Part shown: positions 36,346 through 46,269 of the stretch, in pieces
Layout: the number at the start of each line of letters is the position of its first letter
Position numbering within the stretch: position 1 is the first letter of the stretch
Virus record (IMG/VR): IMGVR_UViG_3300032327_000488
Span: 1 to 55,441 of that record
From: a virus
Taxonomy: Duplodnaviria > Caudoviricetes
DNA: 55,441 bases
Direction: 5' to 3' (one strand)
Made by a program: the position numbers and the translations under genes
Notes under the pieces: generated by a model
The model's input: only the letters and a program-made list of their open reading frames with translations
What the model was told of the DNA's origin: nothing
Databases searched by the model: none

Positions 36346-37347
36346 TCACCATCCGTTCTGTTCAGAAATGTACGCGTCATACGCGTCCGGGTTAGCAGCG
36401 AACATTGCAGTCGAAGCCTGCTCAAGCGAGAAATCCCCAGCAGACTTAGTGACCATCTCCGAAGCCAAACCATTCACGCGATCGTAAATGGAGTTCGAAG
36501 CACCACCAGCGAGGCCAACCTCGTCATAGATCGCGTCACCGGCAGCAGTCAGAACATGGTCAAGAATGTCCAACTCCTCATCAGTGAGGACCGAAGCAGC
36601 AGCCTTCAAAATCGGACCAAACACTCCAGGGTGAACCGGGAGGTTGTACTCAGCAGCCTTAGCAATAAACGCCTCAGTCACACGCTCATCCTGAAGCATC
36701 GCCAGTTCATCCTGCGCCGCCTGAGCCTGAGACTTAGCAATCTCAACCTCGTCCAACGCCTTAGCGATAATGAACTCACGGTCAGACTCAGAAACAGCCT
36801 TCGAAAGCTGCTCAAGCACCGAATCGCCCAAAGACTTGCCGACACCGTCACCGTCACGGTCACGCATCATGTACGCTCCTCCTCCACCAACACCAACACC
36901 AGCAGCGGTGCCAGCAGCAATCTTTTTACCATTCTTACGCGCACCAAAACCTACACGTTGCGCCATCGGGTTAAGCTTCGCAGCACCCTCAGCAGACGGT
37001 CCGCTAGTAATCTCGCCCTTCATGCCAGTCTTAAACTGGTTAGCGGCAGTACGCAAACCACTCATTGAAAGCGCCTTACCAATTTCGTCATCGTCGTCTT
37101 CGTCATCCGCAACGAAAACAAACTCATTACCAGCCTCATCGAAGACAGTGTCGCCATGTTCCAGATCATCCTCATCAACAGGAAGCCCAGTATCGGTGTA
37201 CAGATCTGTCACGCGACTCTCCTCAATCATGTCAGCGGCATTCGCAGCCTTAGAAAACGCAATCAAACCGTGCTGGTTAGCAGGACGGTCAACAGAAGAA
37301 ACCTCATCAAACTCGAGGTCAAACAGCTTGTTCACTTTCCTACCCAT
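36346..37347 (-). CDS. Scaffold protein carrying the N-terminal protease strand EVSSVDRPAN and an internal cationic cassette
   Basis: Acidic and helical; C-terminal NPDAYDAY capsid-binding-like helix; several xxK|A/S motifs; start placed at MGRKV. Confidence 0.75.
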   Translation of the reverse strand: MGRKVNKLFDLEFDEVSSVDRPANQHGLIAFSKAANAADMIEESRVTDLYTDTGLPVDEDDLEHGDTVFDEAGNEFVFVADDEDDDDEIGKALSMSGLRTAANQFKTGMKGEITSGPSAEGAAKLNPMAQRVGFGARKNGKKIAAGTAAGVGVGGGGAYMMRDRDGDGVGKSLGDSVLEQLSKAVSESDREFIIAKALDEVEIAKSQAQAAQDELAMLQDERVTEAFIAKAAEYNLPVHPGVFGPILKAAASVLTDEELDILDHVLTAAGDAIYDEVGLAGGASNSIYDRVNGLASEMVTKSAGDFSLEQASTAMFAANPDAYDAYISEQNGW

Positions 37348-37426
37348 AGAACTAATCATGGAGCACAACTCCCGCCTGCGCGATAGGGATACGCCATAAA
37401 TATTTTACAAACAACAAAAAAGTAGA

Positions 37427-42097: not shown

Positions 42098-43078
42098 CTA
42101 TGCGTTCACATTAGCAGCACGCAGACGCTGAGCCCGATACTGAGCAACACCCAACTCAACATCCTCCGCCGTAATACGCGTCAAATCAGCGTCCTCAGCA
42201 TTAGCAACCCGGCGCACATGCGCCTGCCTAATCGCCTGAACAATGTTGCGGGCATTACGAGCATTACCCTCACCCAACTCACTCACCGCAGAACCAACCA
42301 ACTCCGCAGCCCGCTTATCAAGCTTGTAATCACCCTTCTTGAAAAACAGCCCAGCAATCTTCGTCAAATCCTTAGACGAATAATCAGGGAACTCAATGCT
42401 GGTAGTGAACCGCGACTCCAAGCCCGGGTTCGTCGCAAGAAACTCACCCATCTGCTTCGGATAACCAGCAAGAATAACCACCGTGTCATCACGATGGTTC
42501 TCCATCAACTCAAGCAACGTATCCACAGCCTGACGGCCATACATATCATCCTTGCCCTGAACAAGCGCATACGCCTCGTCAATAAACAACACGCCACCAC
42601 GAGCCTTATCAAACTGCTCCTGCACCAGCGTCTGAGTCTCACCCAGATGCGTACCAATCAACTCCGACTTCTTCGGCGCAACAAACTTATCCGAAGGAAC
42701 CAAACCAAGAGCCTTATACAATGGAGCAATAGAACGAGCAATCTCCGTCTTACCCGTACCCGGATTACCCACAAAAATCATGTGCTTAGTGTCCTGCTCA
42801 ACAGGCAAACCTTCCGCCTCACGACGACGGTTATACACACTCGTCGCAATCAGCGTATTCACCTGCTGCTTCACCTTCGACATACCAATCATCGAACCAA
42901 TGCCGGAAACAATCTCCGTCACCTTGTCGTAATCAATATCAGAAAGATCCGGCTCCCCTACACCAGAGGAAGACCCACCGCTTTCCGCAACATCACGTCC
43001 ACCGAGCGCGGGTGATCCCGCGGCAACACGCGCACCCGTCGGGACGAGAGCCCCTTCGCGAGGGGCTGCACTTTTGGG
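42098..43078 (-). CDS. CbbX/SpoVK/EccA-type AAA+ ATPase, probably expressed as a -1 frameshift fusion with the upstream ORF
   Basis: Walker A GNPGTGKT, Walker B VLFIDEAY, VVILAGY and NPGLESRF; the frame is open upstream of the annotated GTG (42922) to the slippery site. Confidence 0.85.
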   Translation of the reverse strand, partial: PKSAAPREGALVPTGARVAAGSPALGGRDVAESGGSSSGVGEPDLSDIDYDKVTEIVSGIGSMIGMSKVKQQVNTLIATSVYNRRREAEGLPVEQDTKHMIFVGNPGTGKTEIARSIAPLYKALGLVPSDKFVAPKKSELIGTHLGETQTLVQEQFDKARGGVLFIDEAYALVQGKDDMYGRQAVDTLLELMENHRDDTVVILAGYPKQMGEFLATNPGLESRFTTSIEFPDYSSKDLTKIAGLFFKKGDYKLDKRAAELVGSAVSELGEGNARNARNIVQAIRQAHVRRVANAEDADLTRITAEDVELGVAQYRAQRLRAANVNA

Positions 43079-46000
43079 GAACCACCCCCCGCAGGATCCA
43101 TCACATCAATCACTTCACGCACGCGCTTCAAAGCACGCGCCTGCTGAAACAGCAACGCCTGAGCAGCAACAGCAGACGGCTCAAAATCAGACGGACCCGG
43201 ATTATTCTTACCCGTCAAAAGTTGCAAACCCTCCGGAGGGATCCCGGACATTTGAGCCATCTTCGGCAAAAGACTAGCCGGGTTGCTCACAACCTCAGAG
43301 CGCGCCTTCTCCCATGCGTCAGGCAAACCCTTCAACGCAGTAAAAAGAGACTCAGTATCAGAAGGCACCGGAAGAAGAGCAATAGCCCTACCCGGACCAG
43401 CCTCAAACGCATTCAACTGCGCACGGTTAGTAATACCAACAAGATTACTCGTCAACTGCGGCTTAGCCCCCATATAGAACGGGTCATCGCCCACACCGCT
43501 AAACGGATTAATCAAATTAGAAGCAGAAACAAGATCATCTACCAAAGACACCACATACTTGCCCGCGTCTGAAGATGACTTAGCGCCACCAAACGCCTCA
43601 CTCATTGAAGAATCATGCGCAATAACATCGTCCTTAACGGACGGACCAAACAAATAACGGAACGCGCTCGTCATAGCTTTAGAATCAGACGCCACACGCA
43701 AAGCAACCGGGTCAGACTCAATCAAAGACCGCAACTCACGCGGATCCTTCAGCAAAAACGCAGCCATCGCATTCGAATCACCAGAATCAACCGCGTCCCG
43801 CCACGAATCATGCGCCGGTTGAACCGTATTCACACTAGAAACCGTAGAGTTCAACGCCGTATAAGCCTGATTCACCGCAGTCTTAGCAGGAGCGTCATAC
43901 AACTTCAAACGATCCAACAACGGAGCCGAACGCTGCGCAGAAGGCGCACTCGGCGCATCAGGCGACTTAGGCTCCTCAGAAGACTTAGGCGTAGACGAAC
44001 TACTAACTCCGCCAGAAGAACTACTAGTCGCACCGCTAGCCGCAGGCTTCTTATAACCAACCGACGGACGCAACTGGCCAGCAGGCGTATACCCGCGATC
44101 CCGACGCGAAGAAGACTGCAACACCGCGCCCACACGATCATCAGCGCCACGCGACGTCAAAAAGCCAGAACCCTCACGACCAGTACGACCAGTCGCAAGC
44201 GGCTCATACGACACATTCCGAATGAAATACGGAAACTGCTGCTGCAACGTCTTCAAAGCAACCTCATACCCGGCAGCATTCAACGCCAAATCCTGAACAG
44301 ACTCATTTTGGCGCTCAAACTTGATCTCGTCATATACGTCAGCAACACGACGAGCCTGTTCCTGGCCACTCAAACGAGCAAAACCCGGCTCCTTACGAGC
44401 AGCAGCCTCAGCCTCAGCTTGAACTTCCTCCGGATTAATACCCGAACGCTGCTCATCACGCTTCTCATCCAAAATACGGTTACGAATCTTCGTACGCTCA
44501 TCGTTCGTATCCGCACTGGCAGGCAAATTAGACGTCAACAGCCTCGCCGTACGATCCGCGTCGTCATAAACCTGCGGAGAAACATCCTTCAAATACATGC
44601 CCGAATTGTTGACAGCATCAAGAATCTTCAAATAACGCCCGTAAATCTGGCGAGCCTTATCAGAATTACCCCGCGCTCCACGAAAGTTCGGATCAAACTC
44701 AAGAGAAAACACACCAGACGAAGAAACAACAGTCGCCATACGTGCACCAGAAGACACAGACGCGTAAATGTCCTCACCCGTCAAACCACCAGCCACCCGC
44801 GTACGAACATACTGACCACCACGCAAAGCAGCCATGTTCTTCAAATTAAACGGCAAATAATGGTCATCAGCGTAACCAACCGACTGCGACACCACCTTAC
44901 CGTCCGCATCAATCAGCACACCCTGACTCGGCAAAACATGCCCAGACGCCTCACTCAAACGCGCCGTAAAAGAATCAGTCGGCAAAGTACGCGCAAGATG
45001 CGCCGCCGCAACATCCGACTGCACCTGCAACGCCAACTGATCACCAGAAGCATCACGACGACGAGCCAAATACGCGCCCGTCACAATGCCACGACCACGC
45101 AAACCCTGCTCATCATCAAAAGCAGAACCAGCAACATTACCATCAGCAATAGCACGCACCGACTTCATATCCTGGCTAGCGAACTCTTGGCGAAGCGAAG
45201 CATCCGGAGTCTTCTCAGTCCCACGATACCGATACGCAGACTGACGAACATACGGACCCAACACTTCCTCAGCCTCAGGACCAAGAGTGCCCACAAGACC
45301 AGCAAACCCAGCAGCTTTCGCGTTACCCGTAGCAGCCAAAATGTTAGACGCGCCCCTCATACGGTCAAACAACACCGCAGAACCAGACTCATCAACACCG
45401 CGGCGACCAAACGTCTGCTTAAAAGAACCACTATCCAACGCTGTAGTCGCAGCATCCCCGCCAACATAACCAAACGTATTAAAACGAGCCACACGCTTCT
45501 GAGCAGCCGACGAAGCATCCGGAGAAACAGCCACCTCAAGAGAAATGATCTGATCACTCAACGGATTCAACGTCATCGCCACGTCATTCGGCAAACCATT
45601 ACGCGCAGCACTCAAAGGAAAAGACAACGAAGGTTGCATCTTCTGACCATCACGCAAAACCTCCATCTCAACCATGATTCCCTTAGAATCACCGCCGAAC
45701 TGGCGATACAACTCCTTCGCATGACCAGACGCCTGCTCATACTGAGACTGATGCTCGTCCAACTTGCGCTTCTCTTCCGGACTATCCTTCACGCCATCCG
45801 AATACTTACCATCAGCAATATTTCCAGTCGCCACAATCGCAGGCGACAAACCAGCACCAGCGCCAAGCGCAGACGTCTTACGTTGCGTATCCACCACACG
45901 ACCAAAACGACCAGTCGCAGGATCCCGCTCAACAAAAACCTGCTTCTTCTTACCGTTCATATTCCACATCTCGCCAAAACGAGCCTTAGAAATGAACTCC

Positions 46001-46269
46001 TCAATACCAGCCAAATAACGAGCAGTCGTCAACAAGTCATCATCTGGATACGTACCATCAGCCACCCGCGAAACGTACAGACGGCCAAGCGCAGCCTTCG
46101 CAACACTCGTACGCTCCTGCGCCTCATCCGCAGCGTAAGCCTGCAACATGGCATCATTCGCCTCAAGCAGATCCATCACATAATTCGACACAGCCTCATC
46201 CACAAGAACAGCCGCGCCCTCAGGATCAGCAGCAAAAGCCGCATCAATCACGCTCACCAAATCAGTCAC
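42958..46269 (-). CDS. Large head-associated polyvalent protein with a degenerate JAB/MPN-like domain
   Basis: 1103 aa; ISK|A then VERDPATGRF tag; GVLIDADGKVVSQSVG...QYVRTRVAGGLTGEDI..ARMATVVSSSGVFSL. Confidence 0.75.
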   Translation of the reverse strand: MTDLVSVIDAAFAADPEGAAVLVDEAVSNYVMDLLEANDAMLQAYAADEAQERTSVAKAALGRLYVSRVADGTYPDDDLLTTARYLAGIEEFISKARFGEMWNMNGKKKQVFVERDPATGRFGRVVDTQRKTSALGAGAGLSPAIVATGNIADGKYSDGVKDSPEEKRKLDEHQSQYEQASGHAKELYRQFGGDSKGIMVEMEVLRDGQKMQPSLSFPLSAARNGLPNDVAMTLNPLSDQIISLEVAVSPDASSAAQKRVARFNTFGYVGGDAATTALDSGSFKQTFGRRGVDESGSAVLFDRMRGASNILAATGNAKAAGFAGLVGTLGPEAEEVLGPYVRQSAYRYRGTEKTPDASLRQEFASQDMKSVRAIADGNVAGSAFDDEQGLRGRGIVTGAYLARRRDASGDQLALQVQSDVAAAHLARTLPTDSFTARLSEASGHVLPSQGVLIDADGKVVSQSVGYADDHYLPFNLKNMAALRGGQYVRTRVAGGLTGEDIYASVSSGARMATVVSSSGVFSLEFDPNFRGARGNSDKARQIYGRYLKILDAVNNSGMYLKDVSPQVYDDADRTARLLTSNLPASADTNDERTKIRNRILDEKRDEQRSGINPEEVQAEAEAAARKEPGFARLSGQEQARRVADVYDEIKFERQNESVQDLALNAAGYEVALKTLQQQFPYFIRNVSYEPLATGRTGREGSGFLTSRGADDRVGAVLQSSSRRDRGYTPAGQLRPSVGYKKPAASGATSSSSGGVSSSSTPKSSEEPKSPDAPSAPSAQRSAPLLDRLKLYDAPAKTAVNQAYTALNSTVSSVNTVQPAHDSWRDAVDSGDSNAMAAFLLKDPRELRSLIESDPVALRVASDSKAMTSAFRYLFGPSVKDDVIAHDSSMSEAFGGAKSSSDAGKYVVSLVDDLVSASNLINPFSGVGDDPFYMGAKPQLTSNLVGITNRAQLNAFEAGPGRAIALLPVPSDTESLFTALKGLPDAWEKARSEVVSNPASLLPKMAQMSGIPPEGLQLLTGKNNPGPSDFEPSAVAAQALLFQQARALKRVREVIDVMDPAGGGSPKVQPLAKGLSSRRVRVLPRDHPRSVDVMLRKAVGLPLV
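43049..43078 (-). other. Putative -1 frameshift signal C CCA AAA plus a 7-bp hairpin
   Basis: In-frame heptamer at 43072-43078; stem AGCCCCT/AGGGGCT (43049-43067) begins 4 nt downstream. Confidence 0.7.

Follow-up and report, generated by a model that had tools for sequence, protein, structure and literature searches.

A likely programmed -1 ribosomal frameshift joining an AAA+ ATPase to a large protein of the head-gene block in tailed phages

The window analysed here is a viral contig of 55,441 bases assembled from a metagenome (IMG/VR record IMGVR_UViG_3300032327_000488; Duplodnaviria, Caudoviricetes), in which the 3' end of a long gene overlaps the coding region of an AAA+ ATPase. All coordinates of this locus refer to the minus strand. 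The upstream open reading frame (ORF; 42958-46269), taken as the 0 frame, encodes a protein of 1103 residues (P0001), hereafter the carrier, which ends at TAG 42960-42958 with a tail of the form ...RV.V...HP...R..GLPLV. Near its 3' end, and in the register C|CCA|AAA, lies the slippery heptamer C_CCA_AAA (43072-43078), which encodes P1065 and K1066 and is followed by a G. The -1 frame is shut 5' of this site by a TGA codon (43108-43106) and contains no stop from there to TAG 42100-42098. Beyond the heptamer, 42958-43071 forms a dual-coding overlap, in which the 37 codons and stop of the 0-frame tail are superimposed on the beginning of a -1-frame linker. This linker (42923-43072; SAAPREGALVPTGAR...DIDYDK) comprises 50 codons, includes an LVPTG motif and has no start-type codon; it leads directly into an AAA+ ATPase domain of the CbbX/EccA/SpoVK clade (274 residues, 42098-42922, -1 frame). 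Two candidate stimulators flank the heptamer, namely a G-rich, Shine-Dalgarno (SD)-like run (GGGGGGTGGT; 43081-43090) that ends 3 nucleotides (nt) upstream and a 7-bp stem-loop (43049-43067) that follows after a 4-nt spacer, with arms AGCCCCU (43067-43061) and AGGGGCU (43055-43049) and loop CGCGA. The predicted shifted product reads ...GGGSPK-SAAPREGALVPTGAR... and would have 1066 + 324 = 1390 residues. These elements had been picked out in the original prediction, made from this DNA alone, and re-analysis recovered them: the heptamer at 43072-43078 in the correct register of the upstream ORF, the TGA closing the -1 frame just 5' of it, an ATPase frame open back through the overlap to the slip site, the ...GGGSPK- junction with its linker and a hairpin 3' of the heptamer.

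The locus very likely encodes a programmed -1 ribosomal frameshift of the dnaX type, by which a single gene would give rise to both the 1103-residue protein and a 1390-residue ATPase fusion. It combines the canonical features of -1 frameshifting: an in-register X_XXY_YYZ heptamer, an open -1 frame without a start of its own, synonymous-site conservation and a downstream structure. In the proposed mechanism, most ribosomes would continue for 37 codons past the heptamer and so complete the 1103-residue protein, conserved C-terminal tail included. Other ribosomes, in a proportion probably set by the heptamer and its flanking elements (the cassette), would slip one base back on CCA-AAA and read through the flexible linker of 50 residues into the AAA+ ATPase, yielding a fusion without the tail.

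The strongest evidence comes from relatives, the DNA of which was fetched from viral contigs. Both carrier and ATPase are present in 27 loci. The ATPase lies in the -1 frame in 22 of the 27 and is fused in frame in five (L059, L060, L062, L066 and L130), with +1 arrangements found in none, in keeping with the expectation that homologues would either keep the heptamer or be fused in frame. The opening of the -1 frame always lies 5' of the 0-frame stop, the two frames overlapping by 109-256 nt; at 13 of 19 distinct junctions it lies only 3-6 nt ahead of the heptamer. CCCAAAA stands in register and is followed by G at all 19 distinct junctions, the window counted. These junctions span 14 lineages sharing less than 50% identity in the carrier protein, with GC contents of 43-71%. 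The residue preceding the proline varies (S, A, G, V, L, F or P), and its codon ends in C throughout. Within the window, CCA accounts for 2% of the other proline codons, AAA for 6% of the other lysine codons and C-ending codons for 9%. The invariant in-register CCCAAAA runs against this local codon usage. The heptamers and frames of the relatives therefore support the core of the original prediction, i.e. that a -1 shift at C_CCA_AAA joins the ATPase to the 1103-residue protein.

The association between heptamer and ATPase extends to the wider carrier family. An in-register heptamer is present in 28 of 120 distinct carrier ORFs, 22 of which have the ATPase downstream; the remaining six (L044, L046, L087, L099, L119 and L132) gave no ATPase match. 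Conversely, an ATPase-bearing ORF without the heptamer was found in a single distinct case (L059, to which L060 is identical). In metagenome contigs, a different collection, all three full-length close relatives recovered (L215-L217) carry an in-register CCCAAAA at GG..PK, with the -1 frame running into the ATPase. At the protein level, an alignment of 38 sequences shows no variation at P1065 and at least 90% conservation of K1066, in a region otherwise poorly conserved. Pooled over five close pairs, the 600 nt upstream show a substitution density of 19.5%, which falls to 9.6% within the cassette and 10.0% within the remaining overlap.

The ATPase very probably has no translation start of its own and is made only as a fusion, as judged from its reading frame and that of its relatives. 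The competing explanation is that carrier and ATPase are two separate genes, the latter translated from GTG 42922 or by re-initiation after the TAG 36 nt upstream, so that overlap and heptamer would have nothing to do with recoding. GTG 42922 does exist and is the first ATG, GTG or TTG of the -1 frame after the TGA; gene callers also report both the 1103-residue protein and its relatives with no ATPase attached. However, the 20 nt upstream of GTG 42922 pair with the anti-SD motif at just -1.9 kcal/mol, and only one of 26 other mechanically called starts (+0.1 to -11.4 kcal/mol) is weaker, which agrees with the earlier remark that the ATPase ORF lacks a clear ribosome-binding site. This GTG is moreover the codon of a conserved valine within a lead-in helix, formed by the dozen residues ahead of the motif SM[IV]GM ([DE]-x-K-V-x-x-I...) that are conserved in all lineages. 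In nine of the 19 loci, the first start-type codon of the -1 frame is the internal methionine of SM[IV]GM, so that the helix lies 5' of any start codon yet is conserved, indicating that it can be translated only by ribosomes arriving from upstream. Separate genes would also leave unexplained the invariant heptamer that runs against codon usage, the constant -1 frame and the existence of in-frame fusions. On this evidence, the two-gene reading is very improbable, although independent or coupled initiation at GTG 42922 may still occur in this one phage. A search of viral contigs with the ATPase alone returned no match, and a search with it for longer proteins yielded mainly cellular multi-AAA proteins.

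A further possibility is that the split arises from a one-base assembly error, or from a genuine frameshift mutation in a gene that was once fused in frame. Distant relatives are indeed fused in frame, the window is a metagenome-assembled contig and the region contains runs of G6, C4 and A4. Set against this, the split arrangement recurs in 22 viral and three metagenome loci from many samples. In addition, the 0-frame tail is conserved to its GLPLV end, with the 37 residues after the heptamer following the pattern ...[LV]-x-K-[ASG]...SSR-x-V-x-V...[DH]P...R..GLP[LF]V in relatives. Conservation of this tail indicates that the unshifted product is a real protein under selection and not the remnant of an indel. 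In a second study, assembled contigs from three runs contain a relative that is ~93% identical to the window and show zero gaps across the site; a run matching the window exactly, which may be the source of the window, was not counted. The conserved tail and the gap-free contigs together exclude the assembly indel that the original prediction had named as a possible refutation, and artefact or gene decay is exceedingly improbable as an account of the locus.

Both flanking elements of the cassette recur in relatives. The hairpin of the window falls in the lowest 0.9% of in-gene control windows. All 19 loci have a hairpin of 5-11 bp, differing in sequence, that begins 4-8 nt 3' of the heptamer. 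When windows in the same register of the same gene are ranked by fold energy, the 36 nt downstream come within the lowest 10% at each of these loci (median 1.4%). On the upstream side, the G-rich run of the window pairs with the anti-SD motif at -15.0 kcal/mol, exceeding every in-gene control window. Relatives carry comparable runs (GGTGGTG, GGAGG and similar) 3-18 nt upstream of the heptamer, and at 18 of 19 loci the energy of their SD-like pairing ranks within the lowest 10% of in-gene windows, as calculated with a general anti-SD motif that may not be that of the host. These data are suggestive of the G-rich run serving as an upstream stimulator that would pair with the tail of the 16S rRNA.

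Several observations weigh against frameshifting or reduce the force of its evidence. The motif CCCAAAAG occurs four times in the window compared with 2.26 expected, a count at chance level. When compared with dinucleotide shuffles of its own 36 nt, the hairpin of the window is unexceptional (z -0.24), with 80 of 200 shuffles folding as well. Significance therefore derives from the register and position of the motif and from its conservation in relatives, rather than from the window alone. Across the family, mononucleotide shuffles of the 60 nt downstream give z < -2 in just six of 19 loci, and part of the in-gene hairpin signal may consequently reflect local G+C richness. The G-rich run doubles as code for a conserved Gly-Gly pair. 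Conservation of the overlap, finally, could come in part from the 0-frame tail alone.

Recoding might also occur by a different route. The window contains a second in-register heptamer, G_GGG_GGT (43090-43084, minus strand), positioned 12 nt 5' of CCCAAAA and inside the open -1 frame, at which ribosomes could slip instead; alternatively, RNA polymerase could slip on the short homopolymers of the region. GGGGGGT is peculiar to the window and absent from its relatives, whereas CCCAAAA is present in all of them. Bacterial transcriptional slippage is described for runs of ~9 A or T in one review (PMC5009743), in comparison with an A run of only four at this site. Either route is accordingly highly improbable, and slippage at C_CCA_AAA is the reading carried forward below.

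The cargo that would be added by the shift is recognizable as a complete enzyme domain. Pfam identifies PF00004 (AAA; 4e-17) and PF17866 (AAA_lid_6; 5e-07), both above cut-off, and the best matches in the PDB are EccA1 (9lur_A; 4e-49) and CbbX (3zuh/3syk; 2e-47). An alignment of 19 sequences shows Walker A, Walker B, the NPG..SR arginine and the sensor-2 residues to be invariant. The NCBIfam models EccA, SpoVK and CbbX all match (E 1e-67 to 2e-56). However, the three scores (229, 226 and 191 bits) are far under the corresponding equivalog cut-offs (467, 423 and 459), and assignment as CbbX, EccA or SpoVK proper was thus rejected; the ATPase is related to this clade but is not orthologous to any of its three named members.

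The carrier is less readily placed. On the minus strand, PHROGs place the large terminase at 55180-53624 and the portal at 50475-48943, after which come a 904-residue ORF and then the 1103-residue ORF. The 274-residue AAA+ ORF, a 790-residue ORF, an XkdF-type prohead protease (39656-38913; Pfam) and more head and tail genes follow, including a tape measure of 1775 residues (29484-24157). From its position between portal and protease, the carrier may be a head protein. It matched no family in Pfam, PHROG or NCBIfam, and DNA and protein searches of GenBank phages gave no match, even at E<=1, so that no cultured member of its family was found there. Profile searches nevertheless recover a family of 604 representative clusters, and a single partial match to it was found in 185,579 species genomes. 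Some 55 full-length metagenome relatives (31-44% identity, 1117-1225 residues) all lack an AAA domain. A tblastn search with the C-terminal 130 residues against the first 70 loci gave no real match, and a protein atlas search with the carrier produced no usable match. As a side observation, codons ending in C make up 9% of the carrier ORF (42958-46269), which is unusual at 53% GC.

Structure prediction offers a possible reason for the location of the junction. The AlphaFold model of the carrier, built on a 38-sequence alignment, contains several domains (mean pLDDT 78, pTM 0.43), among them a helical domain towards the C-terminus that is predicted with confidence (783-1057). Beyond it come a disordered segment (1062-1081), within which the slip site falls, and a short terminal helix (1087-1097). 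In this model, the slip site follows the helical domain within a disordered segment, which would make it a hinge at which the C-terminus could be swapped without disturbing the fold. Foldseek comparison of the 1103-residue protein with the PDB found nothing at E<=0.001, and a wide VIA-align search returned only helical-hairpin rows (Z<=7.5) for residues 33-104. With a MuF-like minor capsid protein (Mu F / SPP1 gp7 family) considered as a candidate identity for the carrier, BFVD returned only weak matches to entries named 'Minor capsid protein' (E 2e-3, TM 0.09/0.16).

The role of the fusion can be addressed only tentatively. The original prediction supposed that a fixed minority of molecules would carry the motor, possibly to remodel or unfold cargo or host targets, which may be so. 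The shared body of 1066 residues would carry the motor to wherever the carrier resides, which from gene position is probably the prohead or portal region. CbbX/EccA/SpoVK-clade motors pull on peptide tails, and it follows that the phage ATPase could have a remodelling role in assembly or after ejection. It might thus act as a hexameric protein remodeller, either at the site of the carrier or once ejected, a suggestion that is less likely than not to be right. More generally, the question raised by the locus is what job an AAA+ motor tied to a phage morphogenesis protein performs.

The known frameshifts of tailed phages mostly concern tail chaperones or the decoration of capsids and tails. The three-part layout proposed here most closely resembles that of the tau/gamma system of E. 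coli dnaX, in which, as set out in a review, an X_XXA_AAR heptamer is preceded by an SD-like element and followed by a stem-loop (PMC5009743). In the same text, one dnaX gene gives two products with a common N-terminal body, as predicted for the phage locus, and C_CCA_AAG is described as highly shift-prone in E. coli (PMC5009743). The systems differ in that dnaX uses the heptamer A_AAA_AAG and encodes a clamp-loader subunit, whereas the phage family uses C_CCA_AAA in a gene of the head block and the shift would add a complete enzyme domain. The gamma product of dnaX ends one codon past the shift, and the review also notes that some bacteria reverse these roles, with the long product arising from the shift (PMC5009743). 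Both orientations are present in the phage family: the clade of the window would make its long form by shifting, and L066 and L062 are fused in frame with a cassette.

These two in-frame fusions retain C_CCA_AAA_G in register together with both flanking signals, which rank at 0.7% (L066) and 1.8% (L062) of controls for SD-like pairing and at 0.3% and 0.5% for the hairpin. A -1 shift would terminate translation after one codon in L066 (site 1898) and after 31 codons in L062 (site 6103). As predicted from sequence, their arrangement is a dnaX-gamma-like one, in which the short form would be produced by frameshifting. In L059 and L060, the heptamer is lacking and the proteins are fused in frame. 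L130 and L119 have the heptamer and neither flanking signal; they were rejected as true cassettes and treated as chance or decayed occurrences. In L099 (7127) and L132 (8201), the ORF that follows the cassette in the -1 frame has 191 and 298 codons, respectively, and is not an ATPase; the former site consists of heptamer, hairpin and SD-like run and the latter of heptamer and hairpin. The joint may thus attach cargo domains of other kinds in these two loci. No Pfam family was matched by the -1 extensions of L099, L132 or L119.

The tail chaperone G/GT of lambda-like phages offers a second parallel, since there too ribosomes shift to -1 close to the 3' end of a morphogenesis gene, which sets the ratio of two proteins with a shared N-terminus (PMC5009743). 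In that system, as described there, the shift adds a small tail-binding domain, in contrast to the ATPase added here (PMC5009743). Identification of the present site as a G/GT tail chaperone was rejected, given that it lies between portal and prohead protease and not directly upstream of the tape measure. The phage ATPase would also differ from its best sequence matches, namely CbbX (red-type Rubisco activase), EccA (type VII secretion ATPase) and SpoVK, in being tethered to 1066 residues of a phage protein. Text searches of the literature, with supplements outside their scope, returned no account of frameshifting that extends a phage morphogenesis protein by an AAA+ ATPase. The word 'ATPase' does not occur in the examined portion of the text of the PRFect paper, and a note on the Streptomyces BI phage was discarded as a precedent because the part available concerns other genes. 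The decoding mechanism is textbook, and it is the frameshifted fusion of an ATPase to a phage morphogenesis protein that was not found described in the literature. Here, the shift appears to control how many copies of a giant protein from the head-gene block bear an entire enzyme. For annotation, the ATPase 'gene' without a start should be joined to the gene upstream. The family also provides a natural series of cassettes, at GC contents of 43-71%, for studying what makes C_CCA_AAA slip.

Short motifs in the two alternative ends of the carrier were also considered. The original prediction had drawn attention to an LAK|G motif in the unshifted tail. A matching [LVMF]-x-K-[ASG] does occupy that position in most aligned relatives, and this part of the claim stands. 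In the 1103-residue protein as a whole, however, [LIVMF]-x-K-[ASG] is not enriched, with four occurrences observed against 3.5 expected, and its interpretation as a cut site in the tail was rejected. Elsewhere in the window, a 340-residue ORF (36346-37368, minus strand) contains [LIVMF]-x-K-[ASG] nine times against 1.4 expected, a count reached by 0 of 500 shuffles.

A second motif appears on both sides of the fork. The fusion would lose the GLPLV tail and hold LVPTG in its linker (43057 region), while many 0-frame tails of relatives end in GLP[LF]VP[TS]R. The pattern G-x-[LV]-[LVA]-P-T-[GSR] recurs in both alternative C-terminal parts and is found twice in the linkers of L089 and L097. LVPT stands at the C-terminus of the ATPase in L081, L082, L086 and L091, which belong to lineages without a linker copy. 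A short motif common to both alternative ends is thus possible. As a general head-protein cleavage motif LVPT was rejected, as among the long ORFs of the window it occurs once, in the linker only.

Taken further, the CCCAAAA cassette could be regarded as a portable 'recoding joint', located in a disordered hinge and setting the dose of optional cargo. The cargo would be an AAA+ motor in most lineages and unrelated domains in L099 and L132, with the motor instead removed by the shift in L066 and L062, and the LVPT-type motif shared by both ends would be a possible docking or processing signal. Were the carrier packaged within the capsid, infection would deliver a ready-made protein-remodelling motor to the host. 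This view as a whole is speculative and, on present evidence, doubtful.

Some relatives depart from the pattern at the C-terminus itself. In the C-terminal 90 residues of P0125, P0126, P0188 and P0194, Pro-Phe replaces Pro-Lys after the Gly-rich run, which would fit an alternative heptamer, C_CCT_TTY; the DNA of these four relatives was not found in viral or metagenome contigs. Distant relatives without the ATPase (L028-L034, L037, L064 and others) often end in ...GGPIL[TS], and the carrier family may thus have another conserved motif at its C-terminus.

Two further sites of similar character were observed outside the carrier gene. In L062, an 808-residue ORF upstream of the carrier gene contains a second in-register CCCAAAA (L062:1678), and the hairpin that follows it is strong, ranking in the lowest 0.4% of controls. 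In the window, a 146-residue ORF on the minus strand (30261-29821) ends with an in-register C_CCT_TTC (29842-29836), which precedes a -1 ORF (29836-29477), both halves matching PHROGs of unknown function. The arrangement is G/GT-like, with the -1 frame open for 119 codons to the start of the tape measure.

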